A DNA stretch of 64,000 nt from positions 33,548 to 97,547 of the forward strand of contig CAYWPT010000001.1 in NCBI GenBank assembly GCA_964460605.1. The letters run 5' to 3'. The notes under the pieces are model-generated. The model was not told where the DNA came from and did no database searches. It saw nothing but the letters and a program-made list of their open reading frames with translations. Positions 2,194 to 57,737 of this stretch are shown piece by piece. Origin of the DNA: an uncultured Methanosarcinales archaeon. GTDB taxonomy: Archaea > Nanobdellota > Nanobdellia > Woesearchaeales > GW2011-AR9. The translations under genes and the position numbers were made by a program. The number at the start of each line of letters is the position of its first letter. Position 1 is the stretch's first letter.

Positions 2194-2748
2194 TCATTTA
2201 AGACCTGGATTTCCCATAATTAAATTCTTAATTTGTTTTTCTATTACACTACTTTGTACAGAATTTGAGATTGGACCTGCAATAGCCCCTAATTTTCCGT
2301 TTAACCCCCTTGCAATGAGCCTAATGTGTTTTTTGTTTTCATTAGATAGATCTAATTTTTGGTACAATTCCTCCACTTCAGGAAGTAAATGTTTAGAAAT
2401 CTCCTGACTAAGCTCATGCGCAAAAGATAAAATTTCTTGTTCTAAAGCTGCCGCGTTTTTTAATGCATTTAAAGCCCTTTCTGGATAGTCATAATATAAA
2501 ATTTCTGAAACCCTCATTAATTTATCGTAATTCTTTCTCTTTTTTTCAATAAGTTTAATTTGCTTATGGAGCTTTACTAACTCTTTTCTAATTTTTTTCT
2601 CAAGATCTAATTCATTTAATGCTTCATCTTCAGCCAAAGAAATATCCCTTAACATTGACATAAAAGCCCTTCCGACATTTCTAATAGGAATATCTTTAGC
2701 TTTAGCTTTCTTTTCTTCACCCATTCTTCCAAAACCAATTTTTCCCAT
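2194..2748 (-). CDS. hypothetical coiled-coil protein
   Basis: 184-aa ORF, charged and helical, with no motif I recognise. Confidence 0.3.
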   Translation of the reverse strand: MGKIGFGRMGEEKKAKAKDIPIRNVGRAFMSMLRDISLAEDEALNELDLEKKIRKELVKLHKQIKLIEKKRKNYDKLMRVSEILYYDYPERALNALKNAAALEQEILSFAHELSQEISKHLLPEVEELYQKLDLSNENKKHIRLIARGLNGKLGAIAGPISNSVQSSVIEKQIKNLIMGNPGLK

Positions 2749-2785
2749 AGTATACCTAATAAATTAAATATTTATATAATCTCCC

Positions 2786-3289
2786 TTAATCTAGAGCTTG
2801 CTTCACCCGAGCAACGATATCTTTTTGCTTCAAAGTTTTAGCACTATCAAAGGTAATTATATCCAATTTCTTCTTCTGAGCTTCCTCTAAACAGGTTTCA
2901 AAGATTTCAGCATCCATATTATCTTGCACTTTCCCTCTAGAATAGCCACGTTCCTGAAGTCTTCTTTTCAACTTTTTCAAATCTGAACAAGTGATAATTA
3001 TTGCAAGAGAAATCATGGGCTTAGGTAACAAGTGCGCGACATGGCTATCAAAAACAAATAATTCCTTATCACTTTCCTTAACAAATCTCTTAATTCCTTT
3101 AGCTAACTCTTTCATATCCAAATCATAACTTTTTTTTGAACGATTATAACCCAAATTAATCCTTTTATTCTTCCTCATCAGCTTGTGCCAATCAATATGC
3201 GTAAAACCTAATCTCTTAACCAGAACAGAAGTGAGTGTAGATTTTCCAACGCCAGGTGTTCCAGAAACAATAATTAATTTCTTACTCAT
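2786..3289 (-). CDS. adenylate kinase isoenzyme 6 / Fap7-like P-loop kinase
   Basis: N-terminal P-loop 'IVSGTPGVGKST'; ~165 aa; overall pattern of archaeal AK6 (ribosome-biogenesis NTPase). Confidence 0.65.
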   Translation of the reverse strand: MSKKLIIVSGTPGVGKSTLTSVLVKRLGFTHIDWHKLMRKNKRINLGYNRSKKSYDLDMKELAKGIKRFVKESDKELFVFDSHVAHLLPKPMISLAIIITCSDLKKLKRRLQERGYSRGKVQDNMDAEIFETCLEEAQKKKLDIITFDSAKTLKQKDIVARVKQALD

Positions 3290-5043
3290 TTTGAAAGCTT
3301 ATGAGCCACCTTTTTTGGTTTAGCTTTACTTTTTTGTTTTATCTTAAACAACTTCCCTTTAAGTTCAGCTTTTTTCTTTTGCACTTTGCTCAACTTCTTC
3401 CCACTTGCAACTAAAGTGTCCATCATCAATAATATGAAGAACAAGAAGATACCATAAGCAATCAAAATACCAACATCATCTAAGATGCCAATAATGTTTA
3501 CACCAAAGATGAATACTTCACGAATTAATTTTTCTGTAATAACAAAAGGATTCAGTGAAATAAATTCACGAAGTCCAGGAGACATACCTTCAATTGGTAA
3601 AATAATCCCTGATAAGAATAAAAATAAGCTACCCGTGGAGATACTAGCTAAAATCCCTGTCTCTTCTGTGGTGAACAGATAACCAATGATCATACCCACT
3701 AAAGTAAAAAGTGTTGCCGATAATAAGAGTACAAAGAATAATAATGGGAATTGAGCAATAGAATCATAAAGAAAGAAAACAGAAATTATCAAAATAATAA
3801 ATAATTGGAATGCCAATAATAATACGTTACTCAAAAGAGTAGCTAAAACAAAAGTTACCTTTTTTACAGGGATCAAAAAGTTTCTTACATACGCTTGAGA
3901 GGTTTTTTCCATCATTACTAAAGTATCACCAAGCATGATAGCTAAGAACATAACAATTAAAGCCAATAAACTTGGGAAGACATAATTCAAGTTAGTTTTT
4001 TCTTCACTCACTGTTTCAATTTTTGTAACTAATGGGTTTGTGATAGTCCCAGTATCAGACACTGAAAATGCACTCAGTTCTGTTTTAATACCTTCTAAAT
4101 CATTTGAAATTGCATCCAAACTTGCACTCATATCAGTCAGAGTTGTACCTACTTCAGCAACATCAGCACCTGCTTGATCAAGAACCACATTAGCTGAACT
4201 AATTTCTGCTTGCAGAGTATCTAAAATATTTTTCACTGCTTGATAAGTAGAAGTACCATTGTTGCCAAACAATGCCAAAGCTTCATCTAATTCTCTTTCA
4301 ATATCTCCTAATTCTGAGAGTGCAGTTGTTTTTCCGGAACTATCATCCAGACCGTCAACAGCTGTTTGTGCAGCTTCTACAGCAGAAGAAGCAGTCTTAA
4401 TCTTATCTTCCATATTCGCTTGGAAGTTGTCTAAAATCCCTTGATCATAACTTGAATCAAGAACGACATCAGTTAAACTTGAAGATACAGTAGAAGTTGT
4501 GCCTGCCGCAGTATCACTATATTCTCTAAGTGTTCCTAATTCTCCTTTTTCAACATCAATGCTTCCTTGTGCAGTACTAATTTGAGTAAAGATATCAGTT
4601 ACAATATCTTGAGAAAGTTCTTGTGTTTTCAAATTAAACTCATTTCCTAAAGATTCTTGGATAATCCAAACTAAATTAATCCTACTCTGATCAATATAGA
4701 AAGTTACCTCCTTTGGCGTATTATCTGTGACCTGGAATGAATTCGGTACAGAAACACAAGCATGTACAAAATTTGTAGCAATATCACTTTTACAATCGTT
4801 TAAATTAACATAAGTAATCACTTTGAAGTCTTGTTCTTGCAAAGAATCAATTAATTGTGTTACATCGTCTCCAAAACTGTCTGCATGAATTCCAATGTTT
4901 AATCCAAAAAATGCTGAACTATTATAACTCAGACCGATTAAAAGAATAATAAGTAAAGGAGCAAAAATAACTATGAGTGCTGAACTCTTCGCCCTTAACA
5001 GTAAACGAATGTTTTTCTTTACTAATAAAAATAATTGTCCCAT
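3286..5043 (-). CDS. ABC-2 family transporter permease with YhgE/Pip-like extracytoplasmic domain
   Basis: N-terminal TM, then ~330-aa S/T/D/A-rich helical ectodomain, then C-terminal multi-TM ABC-2 permease region; directly downstream of an ABC ATPase gene. Confidence 0.6.
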   Translation of the reverse strand: MGQLFLLVKKNIRLLLRAKSSALIVIFAPLLIILLIGLSYNSSAFFGLNIGIHADSFGDDVTQLIDSLQEQDFKVITYVNLNDCKSDIATNFVHACVSVPNSFQVTDNTPKEVTFYIDQSRINLVWIIQESLGNEFNLKTQELSQDIVTDIFTQISTAQGSIDVEKGELGTLREYSDTAAGTTSTVSSSLTDVVLDSSYDQGILDNFQANMEDKIKTASSAVEAAQTAVDGLDDSSGKTTALSELGDIERELDEALALFGNNGTSTYQAVKNILDTLQAEISSANVVLDQAGADVAEVGTTLTDMSASLDAISNDLEGIKTELSAFSVSDTGTITNPLVTKIETVSEEKTNLNYVFPSLLALIVMFLAIMLGDTLVMMEKTSQAYVRNFLIPVKKVTFVLATLLSNVLLLAFQLFIILIISVFFLYDSIAQFPLLFFVLLLSATLFTLVGMIIGYLFTTEETGILASISTGSLFLFLSGIILPIEGMSPGLREFISLNPFVITEKLIREVFIFGVNIIGILDDVGILIAYGIFLFFILLMMDTLVASGKKLSKVQKKKAELKGKLFKIKQKSKAKPKKVAHKLSK

Positions 5044-5104
5044 TTTAATTATTTATCCTTAAAATGGGGCTCAAAAATTTCTTAATTTTTGTTTGTCCCA
5101 TCTT

Positions 5105-6154
5105 TTACTCTTCTTGTGTAACCGCTTCGAAAATAGTTTTCAATTTCGGTTGTGATACATCTAATGTGTTTAATGAAAGATCATTTTGGTCTATATATGA
5201 TAATAACATTTCTGCTGTTTTGTTAAAATTACTTGTCTCAAGAAGGATATGATTTCTTCTATCAATAATTTTGCTTACCGGAAGGTTCTGTACAAACCCT
5301 AACATTTGTTCATGATTTTTCCCAGTTTTTACTGTAATCACACTATCTTTATGCAAATAAGGACCTCTTAAACTATCTAAAGAGCCATTTTCTTGCAACT
5401 GACCTTTATGTAAAATTGCAACTTTATTACAAATCGCTTCAATACTCTCCAAATCGTGTGAAGCCATAACCACAGTGATTCCTTGTTTGTTTACTTCTTT
5501 AATCAAATAAAGGATTTCTCTTTTCAGATGTGGGTCTAAATTCATCACTGGCTCATCTAAAACTAATAATTTTGGTTTATGGATTAAACTACAAGCAATA
5601 TCTAAACGCTTCTGCATACCACCAGATAATTCTTCAGCTAAATAATTTCTATAAGCGTACAAATCTGTAAATTTGAGAAGGTTCATGGCATTTTCTTTAA
5701 GTACAGATTTCTTTAAGCCATACATTTGTCCAAAATGCATAAGGTTTTCCATTACAGACAACTTAGGATAAAATGATAATCCTTGTGGAGTAAAACCAAC
5801 TTTCTTTCTAATATTAAAACCATGATCTTTGAGATCTCTTTTTTTTCCAGTAGAAGTTGTATACTCTACCCTACCACCTTCAAAGTCTAAAAAACCGACA
5901 ATTACATTTAACAAAGTAGATTTCCCACTACCTGAACGTCCAATAACACCGTAGATGTCACCCTCATCAATACTCAAATTTACATTGTCCAAAATTTTCT
6001 TATGAGAGAACCTTTTAGACAAACCATTCACTCCTAACAATTCCACGACAAGATTAAGCTTTTTTTGTTTATAAATGTTTTTACATAGCTTATTGATAAA
6101 ATAACTCTTATCCTCCACAATCTTTAAATACCCTTCAAGAAAAATATGCTCCAA
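5105..6154 (-). CDS. ABC transporter ATP-binding protein
   Basis: Walker A 'GRSGSGKST', signature 'LSGGMQKRL', Walker B 'LLVLDEP'; extra C-terminal domain. Confidence 0.85.
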   Translation of the reverse strand: MEHIFLEGYLKIVEDKSYFINKLCKNIYKQKKLNLVVELLGVNGLSKRFSHKKILDNVNLSIDEGDIYGVIGRSGSGKSTLLNVIVGFLDFEGGRVEYTTSTGKKRDLKDHGFNIRKKVGFTPQGLSFYPKLSVMENLMHFGQMYGLKKSVLKENAMNLLKFTDLYAYRNYLAEELSGGMQKRLDIACSLIHKPKLLVLDEPVMNLDPHLKREILYLIKEVNKQGITVVMASHDLESIEAICNKVAILHKGQLQENGSLDSLRGPYLHKDSVITVKTGKNHEQMLGFVQNLPVSKIIDRRNHILLETSNFNKTAEMLLSYIDQNDLSLNTLDVSQPKLKTIFEAVTQEE

Positions 6155-30806: not shown

Positions 30807-32660
30807 TTATTTCTTTATAATAAGGTAGGATAAGAGTAAAATAAAGCTTAAAGCAAAGAAGTAAGGAACTAAGTGAATTGTCTTGGCAGCGCTACTCTCA
30901 TAGACTATGACTCCTGAGCGATTCATGACTTTTTGGTCTTTTTTAATACTTATTTTTTCTTGATAATTATTTTCGCTTGCTTCTGCCTGTGTGAGAGTTT
31001 GTATAGTATCATCAACAATAAATTCTTGGACAATGACTTCTTTTTCAAAAGTCTCACAAGTTTTTTTGCTAATATCATCGATGGAAAATTTTTCTTTGAT
31101 TTCTTGACCAAAACCTTTAATGTAAAGGGTGGCACTTCCATCTGCAATTTTTTCATTACAATTTGGGGTAAGCTCTAATGGTACTGTAAATATTCCTTCT
31201 GAAAATTTTTCTTGCATGTCTACTTTAGTTCTTTTTGTAATACTTTTATCAGATTTTTCAGCCCAGAGCTCAATAACATTTTTTGTCTCATCCCCTTTGT
31301 AAGCTTGGAATTTTACCCTGAATGTATCTCCCCAAGAAACTTCTTCATCTTTTCCAAAATCATAAAAATCAATAAAAAATATTTCTGATTCATTCTTTTG
31401 ATACTCAGGATTTACTGCAAGAAGTCTTTTTACAATATCGTTCTTTTCATTATAATCCTCACAGGAATTTTCCTCTATCCAAAACGCTAATTGGTAAGAA
31501 CCTTTTTTCAAATTTGGTGAATAAGATTTACTTTGACTAGTTGTGATTTCTTTATTTGTCCAAGGAGAATAACTCTCTACTTTTTTACCAAACAAATCTT
31601 GTATCTCCCCTTTTACACTAAGATTACTTTTAAGACCATCCAGTCTATTTGTTTCTATTGTAAAAGAAAGATCGTCACCCTGAAAAATTGCGTCTTCATA
31701 GGCGATATCTAAACCCCAATCACATTGAGGGTTGTACTGATTTTCTGCATTTGGCGTTGGAAGAGTTTGGTGCCAAATATCGTCAATTAAAGACCAAGAC
31801 ATCCCTTCTGTGCTTCCTGCAAAATTAGTGTAAGCAATCTTAGCGTCTCCAACATAAAGAGAGAGTTCTTCGAAGTCATAATTATTCAATGAAAAATCAC
31901 TATCTCCGTCTTTGTAAATTACCTTATAATTATTTGGATGGATTAAAGTAGAAGCGCCCATTGTTTTTGTTTGTGCAATAATTAATTCGTTTTCTTTTTT
32001 TATATCGGTAAAATAGAGGCCTTTAAGGTCTATAGTTTTTTCACCATCATTGTATAATTCAATCCATTCACCATTTGGTTTATCTGCCCCATCTTCTCCA
32101 AAAGGGTTTGCTAAGAATTCTGTGATGAAAATATTTTCAAATTCAATTGAAATTTCAGATATGCTATTCTCTTCTCCTGGGCTTCCACCTTGCGTGAGAG
32201 ATTCTCCCCATGTTCCATCACTTCTTCTTTCTAAAGTTAAATTGTTATTATTTGCTAATTTATCATTTGTTAAATAGGTATAATCAAAAGAAGTATTACA
32301 CCATTCACTACCATTGAGAATAAGCTCTTTTCCAGAATTTACTAAACTAAAAGTTATTTCCTGATAATTTTCTGGTTCTTTAAAATAATATGAAAAATTT
32401 TCATAATCTCTTAAGATAATTTTGTAACTATTTGCCGAAATGTTCCCTTCAAGTTCTTTGCCCATCAAACTACATTGACTAATATCTATTATCTCATCCA
32501 CTCCATTATACAATTCTATCCATTCGCATTGTGCATCTGGACATTGTCCTGGATCATACATGACTTCATTAATTAATATTTGTGCAGAAACTAAGCTTGA
32601 GAAGAGTATGAACATGAACGTGCCTAAAAGGGATAGTTTCATAAAGAAAAAACAAGACAT
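30807..32660 (-). CDS. cell-surface protein with two lamin-tail domains (LTD) and C-terminal TM anchor
   Basis: two copies of the LTD signature ('ILINEVMYDPG...EWIELYN' and 'IFITEFLANPFG...EWIELYN'), N-terminal signal/TM, C-terminal hydrophobic anchor 'YFFALSFILLLSYLIIKK'. Confidence 0.6.
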   Translation of the reverse strand: MSCFFFMKLSLLGTFMFILFSSLVSAQILINEVMYDPGQCPDAQCEWIELYNGVDEIIDISQCSLMGKELEGNISANSYKIILRDYENFSYYFKEPENYQEITFSLVNSGKELILNGSEWCNTSFDYTYLTNDKLANNNNLTLERRSDGTWGESLTQGGSPGEENSISEISIEFENIFITEFLANPFGEDGADKPNGEWIELYNDGEKTIDLKGLYFTDIKKENELIIAQTKTMGASTLIHPNNYKVIYKDGDSDFSLNNYDFEELSLYVGDAKIAYTNFAGSTEGMSWSLIDDIWHQTLPTPNAENQYNPQCDWGLDIAYEDAIFQGDDLSFTIETNRLDGLKSNLSVKGEIQDLFGKKVESYSPWTNKEITTSQSKSYSPNLKKGSYQLAFWIEENSCEDYNEKNDIVKRLLAVNPEYQKNESEIFFIDFYDFGKDEEVSWGDTFRVKFQAYKGDETKNVIELWAEKSDKSITKRTKVDMQEKFSEGIFTVPLELTPNCNEKIADGSATLYIKGFGQEIKEKFSIDDISKKTCETFEKEVIVQEFIVDDTIQTLTQAEASENNYQEKISIKKDQKVMNRSGVIVYESSAAKTIHLVPYFFALSFILLLSYLIIKK

Positions 32661-54743: not shown

Positions 54744-55106
54744 ATGGATGATTTAAGAGAAATTGCACTGATGACTTCGAGAGAGTTTGCATCGTATCTA
54801 AGTGCTCATGAAACTAATAGAGTTGCCTTTTGTAGAGAACACCATCCAAAATTTGGAATAAGTCGATCAAGTTTACAAATTATTCTCAGAAATCTTGAAC
54901 AGGGACACGCATATACATATTTACCAAAGGGAAATGGCCAGAATGGTCCACGCCATAGTAGGAGCAGCCCAAAAGAGAGAAAAATAAGACTAAAAAGGTT
55001 AGCAGTCCTTTATGAAACTCTAGGGCTTGAAAGTGATAATGAGTTGGTAGAAAAAGTTGCTGAGCGTTGGCCAGAGTTTAATGATTATTATTCTCAAGCA
55101 AAGTAG
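54744..55106 (+). CDS. hypothetical protein
   Basis: ORF with no motif I recognise; convergent 29-nt overlap with the next gene. Confidence 0.3.
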   Translation: MDDLREIALMTSREFASYLSAHETNRVAFCREHHPKFGISRSSLQIILRNLEQGHAYTYLPKGNGQNGPRHSRSSPKERKIRLKRLAVLYETLGLESDNELVEKVAERWPEFNDYYSQAK

Positions 55107-57198
55107 CTTTTTTTATCTTCAAGTAAGCTGAATTGTTATCTTCTACAATTTCTGCTTCTTCTATTTTGATTTCTTTTTTGAATAATGGGCAGTTTAAGGT
55201 TAATGATTCGAACTCTCCCCCTTCTCCGGCGATGTTTACTCCTAGGTCTTTGTTGAGTTGTTCTAGTTTGTTTACGTCTTCTTGTGTGATGACTTTGTTG
55301 AGCCAATCTTTATTGAGTCCTTCTGCTGCAACTACTGTTAAAATAATTTTGTAATTGTTACTTAGTACTTCTTGCATATGTTGTAGCTGAGATTTATGCC
55401 ATAATGGTGAAAATACTTTGAGGTTGAGGGATTCTGCGATTGCTTCTATTCGATCTCTTTGGTATCTTGAGAAAAGAGCACCAGTAACAATACCACCAAT
55501 ATTGTAATGCTCTTTTGCTTTTTGGATTGCTTTTTTTAGGTCTTCGAGTTCTTCTTCTTTGTTTCCCATTGTTGTTTGAGTGATAATAGGAATATCCATA
55601 GCTTCTGCTTGTAAGTCAGTTAATTCAGTTCCTGCAGTTTGAAACATGTAAGAAAAAGGGTTTTTGCTTTTCATAGTAATAAGACATGCTAATTGGTAAT
55701 TTTGCTCTTTCATGATTTGTGCAGCTCGTGTTGAGTCTTTTCCAGAAGAGAAGAGTACTCCTAATTTGAGATTGTGTTTTGGATAGAAGGTTCTCAGGTA
55801 TGCTGATTTGCTTGAAAAGTCATTTTGTTTTGCTAACTTTTGGATTGCACTATCGAATCTTGATCCATATTGTGCAGCTTTCTTTTTTCTCCAAGCGAAT
55901 TCTTTGCTGATTCCTTTTTCTTCAGCAATTTCTCTTAGAATGACTTTTCCAAAATCTTCGTTGAGTTTGTATTGTTCTGGAATTTTTAAAGCGTATTCTA
56001 CTAGTTCTTTATCTAAGAAAGGTAATCTTAATTCTAAGTTATTATCCATGGTTAAGACATCATCTCGATATAAGTCTCTTTCATAGATTTTTCTCAAACC
56101 AGCTAAGCATTCTTCATTAATATGATTTGCTTGTCTGTGCCTTTGATAGCCTGCGAAAATTTCCTCACTGCCTAAGCCTGAGAAGATGACTTTGTTTCCG
56201 TCTTTTTTAGCTGCTTGAGCTGCTAGGTAGAAGGTTAATGCAACGCCAACTTTTACTACGTTACTATCTTCAATTAAAGGGACAATGTGTTTGAGGTATT
56301 GAGGTATTTCTTCTTGTTTTATCTTAATTATCTTATGATTAAGCTTGAGTTCCTCTGCAACTTTGATTGCTGGCGCGAGATCTGCTGGTTCAGCATGTTC
56401 AGTATCTAAAACTGCAGTATAAGCTGTGAAATCTACTCCTTTTTCTTTGAGAGTCTTAGCTATGAATGTAGAGTCAATGCCTCCACTGAAAAGAAGAGCC
56501 ACTTGTTTTTCAGGTATACGTTTTTGGATTGCAGAATCTAATAATTCTTTAGTTTTAAGCTTAATTTCTTCTTTTTCTTGACTGTGTTCTGGTTTTGTTG
56601 TGAAGAAACCTTGTTCCTCTTTTTTGAGGGTTTTAGCTTGAGTATCGTAGTATAAAATAGTTCTTGGGTTTAATTCTTGGATATCAAGGTAATTTAAAGA
56701 TTCTAAGACTTTAGCTTCTGAGCTGAAAGCGAAAGTGTCTTTGTTCCATGAGAAATGAAGGGGTTTAACGCCGATAAGATCCCTTGCTAAGGCTATTGTA
56801 TTTCCTTTCCAGTAAGCGAAAGCGTAAACACCATCAAGTTCGTTTAATTTGTTTGTGTAGAACTTGTCTAAGAATTTAAGCAAAAGTTCAGCATCGTTTG
56901 TTGCTTCTAGTTGGTATTTTTCGGCTAATTCCTTCCAATTATAGATCTCGCAATTGGCAACTAAAGTTCCTTCTCCTTTGAGTGGTTGCGGGCTGTTTCC
57001 TACCACTGCATGCAAGGTGTGTCCTAGGATTGTGTTTCCACTCAATGTGTGTAATTCATTTGAACTTTTAGCTGTGATTATTTCAGTTCCGTTGGTGAGT
57101 CCACAGGCATCTTTTCCTCTGTTTTGTAATAAAGCTAAAGCTTCTTTTACTTCTTGTTTAGCTTTCTCTTTTCCAACAATACCAATGATTCCACACAT
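55078..57198 (-). CDS. asnB: asparagine synthetase (glutamine-hydrolysing) fused to a C-terminal Dph6-like (DUF71, diphthine-ammonia-ligase-type) PP-loop domain
   Basis: N-terminal 'MCGIIG' Ntn glutaminase; AsnB PP-loop 'LFSGGIDSTF'; C-terminal ~230 aa with 'LFSSGKDSTRAAQ', 'LQAEAMDIPII', 'GIVTGALFSRYQRDRIEAIAESLNLKVFSPLW', 'EGGEFESLTLNCPLFKK' matching the Dph6/DUF71 family. Confidence 0.8.
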   Translation of the reverse strand: MCGIIGIVGKEKAKQEVKEALALLQNRGKDACGLTNGTEIITAKSSNELHTLSGNTILGHTLHAVVGNSPQPLKGEGTLVANCEIYNWKELAEKYQLEATNDAELLLKFLDKFYTNKLNELDGVYAFAYWKGNTIALARDLIGVKPLHFSWNKDTFAFSSEAKVLESLNYLDIQELNPRTILYYDTQAKTLKKEEQGFFTTKPEHSQEKEEIKLKTKELLDSAIQKRIPEKQVALLFSGGIDSTFIAKTLKEKGVDFTAYTAVLDTEHAEPADLAPAIKVAEELKLNHKIIKIKQEEIPQYLKHIVPLIEDSNVVKVGVALTFYLAAQAAKKDGNKVIFSGLGSEEIFAGYQRHRQANHINEECLAGLRKIYERDLYRDDVLTMDNNLELRLPFLDKELVEYALKIPEQYKLNEDFGKVILREIAEEKGISKEFAWRKKKAAQYGSRFDSAIQKLAKQNDFSSKSAYLRTFYPKHNLKLGVLFSSGKDSTRAAQIMKEQNYQLACLITMKSKNPFSYMFQTAGTELTDLQAEAMDIPIITQTTMGNKEEELEDLKKAIQKAKEHYNIGGIVTGALFSRYQRDRIEAIAESLNLKVFSPLWHKSQLQHMQEVLSNNYKIILTVVAAEGLNKDWLNKVITQEDVNKLEQLNKDLGVNIAGEGGEFESLTLNCPLFKKEIKIEEAEIVEDNNSAYLKIKKATLLENNNH

Positions 57199-57221: not shown

Positions 57222-57737
57222 TTATAAAAGTTTAGATAGGAATAATTCCCTAATCAAAAAAAAGATTATACTACTGATCACTGCAATAAAAACACCAATT
57301 AAAATCTTCTCAATTAACTCCTCCCTCTTGTTCTTAAGAGACTTCTTTGAAATTGGTTTTCCTTTTGAAAGGTTAATTAACTCACTCCTATCAGTAAAAT
57401 CGAAGGCATTGAGTTTTATCAACCTAAAAAGAACTGCGTTTTTCTTTCTTCCAAATTTTTTTGCTAAAAAAGGTATTGTTTTTCTTTCTGAGAATAATTT
57501 TAAAAGAAGTTTTGAGTCACTTTCAGGCCATATCCTTCCATGATTAATCGTATCTTTCTCTTCAGGAAAACCTAAGAAACCGCTTTTTATCAGCCTATAA
57601 GTGATTGCATCAAGATTTCTGTCTAATTTTTTTGCTATATGCTCAATTGATTTCCCCCCTTCATAGAGTTTTTTAAGTTTTAATAAATCCTGTTTGGACC
57701 ATGGCCTTCCTAAATTTTCTCTATTAACAATCCTCAT
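57222..57737 (-). CDS. membrane-anchored protein with two Myb/SANT-like HTH repeats
   Basis: two repeats 'W(S/P)..D..LL.L......I..(I/L)AKK(L/F)(D/G)R...A(I/V)..RLIK'; C-terminal TM 'ILIGVFIAVISSIIFFLI'. Confidence 0.45.
   Translation of the reverse strand: MRIVNRENLGRPWSKQDLLKLKKLYEGGKSIEHIAKKLDRNLDAITYRLIKSGFLGFPEEKDTINHGRIWPESDSKLLLKLFSERKTIPFLAKKFGRKKNAVLFRLIKLNAFDFTDRSELINLSKGKPISKKSLKNKREELIEKILIGVFIAVISSIIFFLIRELFLSKLL

Follow-up and report, generated by a model that had tools for sequence, protein, structure and literature searches.

A glutaminase–AsnB-like–Dph6 fusion in a Woesearchaeota-type archaeon: a possible glutamine-dependent diphthamide synthetase with a non-canonical synthetase domain

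Here we describe a gene that joins, in a single open reading frame (ORF) of 706 amino acids (aa), a class-II glutamine amidotransferase domain (G), an AsnB-type PP-loop domain (S) and a Dph6/DUF71 domain (D). It lies on a 64,000-nucleotide stretch of DNA, hereafter the window, that was analysed as a whole (assembly GCA_964460605.1, contig CAYWPT010000001.1, positions 33,548 to 97,547 of the forward strand, deposited as an uncultured Methanosarcinales archaeon). The D domain is very probably an orthodox Dph6, S is not a canonical asparagine synthetase, and we tentatively read the whole as a three-domain glutamine-dependent diphthamide synthetase, giving this reading a little less than an even chance. 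The interpretation is not new, since the same fusion and the idea that glutamine supplies its ammonia were published in 2012 (PMC3541065) and NCBI already names relatives 'diphthine--ammonia ligase'; a preliminary description of the gene, made from its sequence alone, was thus a correct rediscovery. What we add are the Dph6 signatures of D, the residue losses in S, the natural variants of the fusion, and the G-dependent relaxation of S residues.

Results

The layout of the gene is as follows (all features on the minus strand; positions are those of the window).

55078..57198: G-S-D fusion ORF, 706 aa, with an ATG start and zero internal stops; stop codon at 55078-55080
56608..57198: G domain, aa 1-197, class-II (N-terminal nucleophile, Ntn) glutamine amidotransferase (Pfam GATase_6/7; alignment to 1CT9/6GQ3; family invariants)
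57193-57195: Cys2, nucleophile of G by alignment to 1CT9/6GQ3
Within G: N82, E84, D102 and K145 (gate position), by alignment, with roles from PMC6748925 and bioRxiv 2023.05.16.541009
57013-57015: L62 of G in place of the Gln-carboxylate-binding Arg, by alignment
55783..56577: S domain, aa 208-472, AsnB-type PP-loop ATP-pyrophosphatase (Pfam Asn_synthase; alignments; Foldseek)
56470-56487: S PP-loop SGGIDS, aa 238-243
56245-56256: S segment VKVG (V315-K316-V317-G318) instead of T-T-x-R, non-canonical
56173-56175: L342 of S in place of the catalytic Glu, by alignment
55861-55884: S motif KKAAQYGS with K439 (= human Lys-466)
55768..55782: S-D junction PKHNL, five residues, bordered by invariant Y467, Y472, N476 and L479
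55093..55767: D domain, aa 478-702, archaeal Dph6 / DUF71 (putative diphthine-ammonia ligase)
55732-55749: D PP-loop SSGKDS, aa 484-489
55207-55224: D motif EGGEFE, aa 659-664 (EGGEFESL, 659-666)

That one ORF connects an AsnB-like part to a Dph6-like part, as the preliminary description had stated, is confirmed by the ORF listing, Pfam and NCBIfam, and the motifs it quoted (Cys2, SGGIDS, the SGKDS PP-loop and EGGEFESL) are all present. Pfam places GATase_7 at aa 68-166 (1.7e-19), Asn_synthase from aa 216 (1.8e-46) and Diphthami_syn_2 (PF01902) at aa 478-699, the latter covering positions 2-218 of the 219 in the profile (2.1e-57; 194.6 bits against a cut-off of 23.2). The AlphaFold2 model of the entire chain has a predicted local distance difference test (pLDDT) value of 91.9 and a predicted template modelling score (pTM) of 0.89, and this high whole-chain score, together with the short and conserved S-D junction, suggests a fixed arrangement of S and D beyond a loose tether. 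Among the Foldseek matches there was no solved chain spanning all three domains.

Could the ORF be two adjacent genes, asnB and dph6, joined artificially by a sequencing or assembly error? We consider the chance of this negligible, and such an error, like a hidden frameshift, is ruled out by three sets of observations. Contigs from ENA, JGI and Logan, assembled independently of one another, encode an identical 706-aa product, and every one of the 120 best database clusters (58-71% identity) is a full-length fusion, 650-731 aa in length. Furthermore, with one genome scanned per species, a pattern specific to the S domain picked out a relative in at least 577 genomes, and in the best 80 of these species-level loci a single ORF is hit by the G, S and D profile hidden Markov models (HMMs), loci cut by a contig end excepted (80/80). 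The hidden stop or frameshift against which the preliminary description had warned was therefore looked for and excluded, and the fusion is indeed conserved in relatives.

Where close relatives are named, they are called 'diphthine--ammonia ligase' and come from metagenome-assembled genomes (MAGs) of Woesearchaeota or Nanoarchaeota; the fusion carriers as a whole belong mostly to these two groups, with Methanolobus and Methanofastidiosia in addition. For the exact protein encoded in the window, no source name is on record. Archaeal Dph6 is normally a stand-alone protein, as had been assumed, and about 35 stand-alone loci were counted. The G-S-D fusion is nonetheless the dominant form of Dph6 in Woesearchaeota-type DPANN archaea, and the window gene adds another member to a very large family that is already annotated. 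A second, more diverse set was obtained by searching 1.84 billion cluster representatives and classing the top 150 matches by architecture.

Several minor observations were made within the family. Many third-party-assembled MAGs titled 'uncultured Methanosarcinales archaeon' (TPA_asm; L005-L007, L010, L015 and others) carry fusions that are 65-70% identical to those of Woesearchaeota/Nanoarchaeota, the fusion of a named Methanolobus genome being just 55% identical; the label 'Methanosarcinales' is apparently a placeholder or a taxonomic error. A few full-length fusions are without the Cys1 nucleophile, namely P0150, P0203 (start MTRI..), P0133 and the ORF at L040 16-3150. In P0133 (1005 aa) and the L040 ORF, G is preceded by about 340 additional N-terminal residues, which would bury the N-terminal nucleophile, barring processing or a wrong gene call. 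In Nanoarchaeota MAG177 (L054, JAYEIZ010000177.1), the G-S-D gene (2581-4731) is overlapped at its stop by a second, stand-alone DUF71 ORF (4719-5339). With 149 bits on the D-domain HMM, versus about 340 for D domains of fusions, this ORF is a divergent paralog adjoining a fusion.

The evidence on D all points the same way. Against TIGR03679 (Dph6_archaeal, NCBIfam) it scores 251.1 bits with a cut-off of 197.3, over positions 2-218 of 218, and its alignment to PH1257 (2D13) and PF0828 (3RJZ) runs over the full length at about 50% identity (E 1e-49 to 1e-52). In the AlphaFold2 model D superimposes on 3rk1/2d13 with a template modelling score (TM) of 0.93-0.95 and a root-mean-square deviation of 1.3-1.5 Å (Foldseek). 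Its PP-loop, for which S-G-G-K-D-S is expected, reads S484-S-G-K-D-S489, with S484, G486, K487, D488 and S489 invariant in the 120 fusions, as is E659-G-G-E-F-E664. The latter fits E-G-G-(D/E)-x-E, the motif that separates Dph6 from the ENGE(F/Y)H paralogs within DUF71, and the substitutions G216N/E220A inactivate yeast Dph6 (PMC3585130). The Dph6-conserved residues that face elongation factor 2 (EF-2) are all kept: S516, Y517, E550, Y579, Q580, A625, E659, E662 and E664 correspond to S44, Y45, E78, Y103, Q104, A149, E183, E186 and E188 of PF0828 in its modelled EF-2 interface (PMC3541065). As profile scores, motifs, interface residues and fold all match, D is in all probability an orthodox Dph6; every Dph6 signature tested was found, and both TIGR03679 and PF01902 were passed.

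Stand-alone Dph6 proteins (PF0828, 3RJZ/3RK0/3RK1; PH1257, 2D13) thus share with D the PP-loop, EGGEFE, the proposed EF-2-interface residues and the fold. They are, however, single-domain proteins of about 225 aa and presumed users of free ammonium, whereas D forms the C-terminal third of 706 aa. A parallel in design is the Dph6 of yeast and plants, in which DUF71 is followed by two YjgF/RidA domains (PMC3585130), so that there, too, a Dph6 core is fused to a proposed ammonia-generating module; in yeast these fused domains are essential (PMC3585130). Unlike in the window protein, the module fused there lies C-terminally and belongs to the RidA type rather than being a glutaminase or a second PP-loop.

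Residues of G and S were mapped by alignment to E. coli AsnB and human ASNS, with roles taken from PMC6748925 and bioRxiv 2023.05.16.541009. In G, C2, N82, E84, D102 and R27 are invariant or nearly so, the first four corresponding to the Cys nucleophile, Asn-74, Glu-76 and Asp-96. The tunnel and gate residues of human ASNS also have conserved counterparts: Val-119, Val-141, Arg-142, Leu-255 and Met-344 are V124, V144, K145, L236 and F323, and Ser-362, Asp-405, Glu-414 and Leu-415 are S340, D380, E389 and L390; the Ala-404 position, D379, differs from ASNS. Judging from this conservation, ammonia transfer from G to S is probably functional. Of the preliminary proposal that glutamine-derived ammonia is channelled to a second amidation, the G-to-S part therefore finds support in the conserved tunnel and gate, and the S-to-D path has no computed support.

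The S domain has the fold and the nucleotide site of an asparagine synthetase. Together with G it matches 1ct9/6gq3 in the AlphaFold2 model at TM 0.77-0.79 (Foldseek), AsnB/ASNS being the closest solved structures, and it retains the residues of the ATP/pyrophosphate site (PP-loop S238-GGIDS, S340 = Ser-362, K439 = Lys-466) as well as E345/E346 (= Asp-367/Glu-368) and D375/R378 (= Asp-400/Arg-403). The N-terminal two thirds of the protein barely pass the equivalog TIGR01536 (asn_synth_AEB; 279.7 bits versus a cut-off of 267.1) and fail the AsnB-specific NF006949 (216.5 bits versus 499). Furthermore, L342 replaces human Glu-364 (E. coli E348), V315 replaces Thr-336 (Val/Ile across representatives) and, in the T-T-x-R segment, G318 replaces Arg-339. 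Glu-364 is needed for catalysis, and T336I almost abolishes activity (PMC6748925 / bioRxiv 2023.05.16.541009). Glu at position 342 occurs in 0/150 diverse representatives and 0/120 close homologs, and L342, L62, K316 and G343 are invariant in the 120 fusions; the Methanolobus fusion (L080) likewise lacks Glu at position 342 and has Leu at position 62.

Because the Glu-364, Thr-336 and Arg-339 positions are replaced family-wide, S is, as far as its sequence tells, not a canonical asparagine synthetase, the aspartate-activating residues having apparently been lost. With E. coli AsnB (1CT9) and human ASNS (6GQ3), the window protein shares the G+S fold, the Cys1 nucleophile, the PP-loop, Lys-466, Asp-400/Arg-403, and the tunnel and gate residues; it differs in carrying L342, V315, G318 and L62 for Glu-364, Thr-336, Arg-339 and Arg-48, and in that S ends about 70 residues short of the E. 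coli AsnB C-terminus. As such, the 'complete AsnB' of the preliminary description holds for the domain architecture, but not for the catalytic residues or the missing C-terminal part, and with L342, V315, G318 and L62 fixed across the family a functional AsnB is unsupported. For its alternative suggestion of a tRNA-dependent amidation task, no evidence was found.

Natural variants show which parts of the protein can occur apart. The 150 representatives comprise, as three main classes, 55 G-S-D fusions, 53 stand-alone G-S proteins, whose end coincides exactly with the S boundary, and 18 S-D proteins, which begin about 20-60 residues ahead of the S PP-loop. When conservation was compared per site between the G-S-D class and 15 S-D representatives without G, it was lower in the G-less class at E389 (= Glu-414; 0.93 to 0.40), R391 (= Arg-416; 0.98 to 0.33), D380 (= Asp-405; 0.78 to 0.20) and S340 (0.84 to 0.47). 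Neither class falls below 0.8 at the PP-loop, K439, KxAAQYGS, R378 or E345/E346. Since the G-facing and gating residues of S relax only where G is missing, G-S coupling appears to be under selection when G is present; the comparison also indicates that S keeps a nucleotide-site function independent of G.

At one individual locus (L135), a G-S gene and a gene for a stand-alone Dph6 share a strand and are separated by 1.5 kb. An apparent 'X+D' fusion (L165) was dismissed, as Pfam matches D only and the long N-terminus is a product of the stop-to-stop ORF definition. A stand-alone G-S gene also lies directly after an archaeal exosome/proteasome superoperon (Rpp14, proteasome alpha, SBDS, Rrp4, Rrp41, Rrp42) and on the same strand (L086 1591-7407, JGI 3300075147); the contig ends 21 nt past the G-S stop.

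Discussion

The fusion was described by de Crecy-Lagard et al. (2012; Biol Direct 7:32, PMC3541065), who noted an AsnB domain, consisting of a class-II glutamine amidotransferase (GAT-II) and an Asn_Synthase_B_C PP-loop, ahead of DUF71 in 'a few Archaea', namely Methanohalophilus mahii, Methanosalsum zhilinae and 'Ca. Nanosalinarum'. They proposed that NH3 from glutamine hydrolysis feeds both PP-loop enzymes, and their reviewer L. Aravind asked which PP-loop takes the NH3 and what the AsnB-like PP-loop catalyses. The window protein is likewise archaeal and has the same order of GAT-II, AsnB PP-loop and DUF71/Dph6; unlike those carriers, it comes from a Woesearchaeota/Nanoarchaeota-type DPANN genome, a group in which the fusion dominates. 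The 2012 paper holds no analysis of the losses in the S active site, nor of variants lacking G or D, and our literature search found no later experimental work on the AsnB-DUF71 fusion. A similar choice of nitrogen source is seen in NAD synthetase, which, according to PMC3376133, is a PP-loop amidoligase that is ammonia-dependent as a stand-alone enzyme or glutamine-dependent in a fused form, according to lineage. There, a nitrilase-like glutaminase is fused directly to a single synthetase, with no intervening second PP-loop.

So what does a Dph6 gain from an AsnB-like protein that no longer looks like an asparagine synthetase? In the glutamine-dependent diphthamide synthetase that we tentatively propose, Cys2 of G would hydrolyse glutamine, or an amide donor closely related to it, and the NH3 would pass via the preserved AsnB-type tunnel into S. 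Having ceased to activate aspartate, S would relay the ammonia to the rigidly attached Dph6 site, where D would adenylate the diphthine carboxylate on EF-2 before ammonia attacks. G-S would then serve mainly as an ammonia-generating and -delivering unit for D, and the retained ATP site of S could, as in AsnB, link nucleotide occupancy with the opening of the tunnel, and/or serve a second amidation. Here we infer both the glutaminase activity and the passage of NH3 from S to D; that NH3 does reach D is a prospect we rate slightly below even.

Several points weigh against this proposal. Stand-alone Dph6 suffices for most archaea, and a 2021 review states that archaeal dph6 assignments still await experimental confirmation (PMC8305020). 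The side chain of human Arg-48 is positioned to contact L-glutamine (PMC6748925), and this position (E. coli R49) is taken by L62, which does not vary in the 120 fusions, the position being Leu in nearly all of the 150 representatives as well; because the glutamine-contacting Arg is Leu family-wide, glutamine binding is not assured. Neither dph2, dph5 nor EF-2 was found among the 20 larger ORFs of the window (Pfam) or in the conserved neighbourhoods, the window covering 64 kb of the genome, and so no operon or synteny link to these genes emerged; this does agree with the remark in PMC3541065 that dph genes seldom cluster. Finally, the variants count against it from both sides. Seven metagenomic S+D loci have no G-domain ORF in 2.6-5 kb of upstream or flanking DNA, and since the S nucleotide site is conserved in these G-less genes, S presumably does more than relay NH3 from G. 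Stand-alone G+S proteins are common (53/150 representatives), and a Dph6 gene is usually absent within 6 kb of them, none being found within that distance in L167-L169, which implies that G-S also works without a fused D.

The seven glutaminase-less loci (L087, L091, L094, L107, L112, L115, L127), with genes of about 470-530 aa, represent a variant absent from the 2012 description. A separately encoded G was not found upstream of them within the 2.6-5 kb available, and the conserved nucleotide site of S in these genes weakens the notion of S as merely a passive conduit from G.

Since the G-less S-D and the stand-alone G-S genes favour an autonomous role of S, a second explanation comes close to the glutamine-dependent synthetase: the protein may unite two independent amidoligases, S acting on its own carboxylate substrate with ammonia from G, and D using free ammonium. 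The substrate of S could then be a small molecule, another site on EF-2 or another translation component, and co-expression, co-localisation on a common target or evolutionary inertia would account for the fusion. Beyond the variants themselves, the changes of E to L, T to V and R to G at the aspartate-activating positions are what a change of substrate would be expected to look like, and AsnB-fold enzymes with other substrates have been characterised (beta-lactam synthetase, carbapenam synthetase, TsnB9). However, the gene context yields no candidate substrate, S and D seem more than loosely tethered in view of their very short, conserved junction and the high pTM of the whole chain, and a benefit to D from G-S would more readily account for a fusion found in at least 577 species and several archaeal lineages; on balance we find two separate amidoligases rather unlikely. 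That S is an uncharacterised ATP-dependent amidoligase with its own substrate or, in a milder form, that its retired site acts as an ATP gate for an extended G-S-D tunnel, seems improbable to us. As S stays joined to Dph6 after loss of the glutaminase, such a substrate may be a second carboxylate of EF-2 or of another translation component, and if S were a separate amidoligase, two amide modifications would draw on one glutaminase and an unknown archaeal protein modification would be revealed.

A plain bifunctional enzyme, in which S is a divergent glutamine-dependent asparagine synthetase and one glutaminase serves both S and Dph6, as was suggested in 2012, is in our view also quite unlikely. 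In its favour, TIGR01536 is passed, AsnB/ASNS are the closest solved structures, and S keeps several of the contacts to beta-aspartyl-AMP of the ASNS model (E345, E346, D375, R378 and K439). These are set against a Glu-364 equivalent that is never Glu in the 150 representatives, the replacement of Thr-336 by Val/Ile and of Arg-339 by Gly, the low NF006949 score and the absence of about 70 C-terminal AsnB residues from S. Because S is not a standard asparagine synthetase, the stand-alone G+S relatives in DPANN genomes may be capable of less biosynthesis than their label 'asparagine synthetase B' implies.

EF-2 carries diphthamide as a conserved modification in both archaea and eukaryotes, and to our knowledge the in-vivo nitrogen source of its last biosynthetic step has never been settled. 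The fusion family offers a ready-made system for asking whether diphthine amidation can be glutamine-dependent. Furthermore, the residue-level and variant-class analysis narrows the question of 2012 about the role of the second PP-loop, which could be answered in vitro.

Genomic context

Both in the window and in related genomes, the fusion gene has housekeeping genes as its neighbours, namely those for a DRG GTPase, MscS, a Na+/H+ exchanger and an amine-oxidase-like protein, along with the A/V-ATPase operon. The surroundings are archaeal in character (Hef, PCNA, the A/V-ATPase operon, the DRG GTPase), and the neighbours conserved among relatives (DRG GTPase, MscS, prefoldin-beta, M24 peptidase and a small cytidylyltransferase-like gene) look like shared gene order. 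No second Dph6, AsnB-like or glutaminase copy was found in the 64-kb window with the G, S and D HMMs. The check for a separate dph6, dph2 or dph5 that the preliminary description advised could thus be completed for the 64 kb of the window (its 20 larger ORFs in the case of dph2/dph5), where none was found; related Woesearchaeota contigs do carry dph2.

On two Woesearchaeota-type contigs that also carry a stand-alone G-S gene, a gene for a thioredoxin-reductase-like flavoprotein (PF07992) abuts or overlaps a short Dph2-family gene (L168 10027-12267, GCA_053534015.1, JAIYLX010000017.1; L167 11868-13383). The latter gene (PF01866, 222-253 aa) is of the split DPANN form, and in L168 a DnaJ-domain gene comes next after the pair. 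By analogy, this trio recalls the electron-donor (Dph3/Cbr1) and DnaJ (Dph4) partners of eukaryotic Dph1/2. We know of no established physiological reductant of archaeal Dph2.

Two small ORFs flank the fusion gene. A 120-aa ORF (54744-55106, plus strand) has a 29-nt overlap with its 3' end, is called on three independent contigs and has no Pfam match. Directly upstream of the gene lies a 171-aa ORF (57222-57737, minus strand), whose position is kept on sister contigs and for which no Pfam match is on record; by eye it contains two similar segments of 35-40 residues (..LKKLYEGGKSIEHIAKKLDRN..ITYRLIK.. and ..LFSERKTIPFLAKKFGRKKNAVLFRLIK..) and a hydrophobic C-terminus. Elsewhere in the window, a 617-aa ORF (30807-32660, minus strand) with two Lamin Tail Domain matches (PF00932, 6e-18) is found in an otherwise housekeeping archaeal region.

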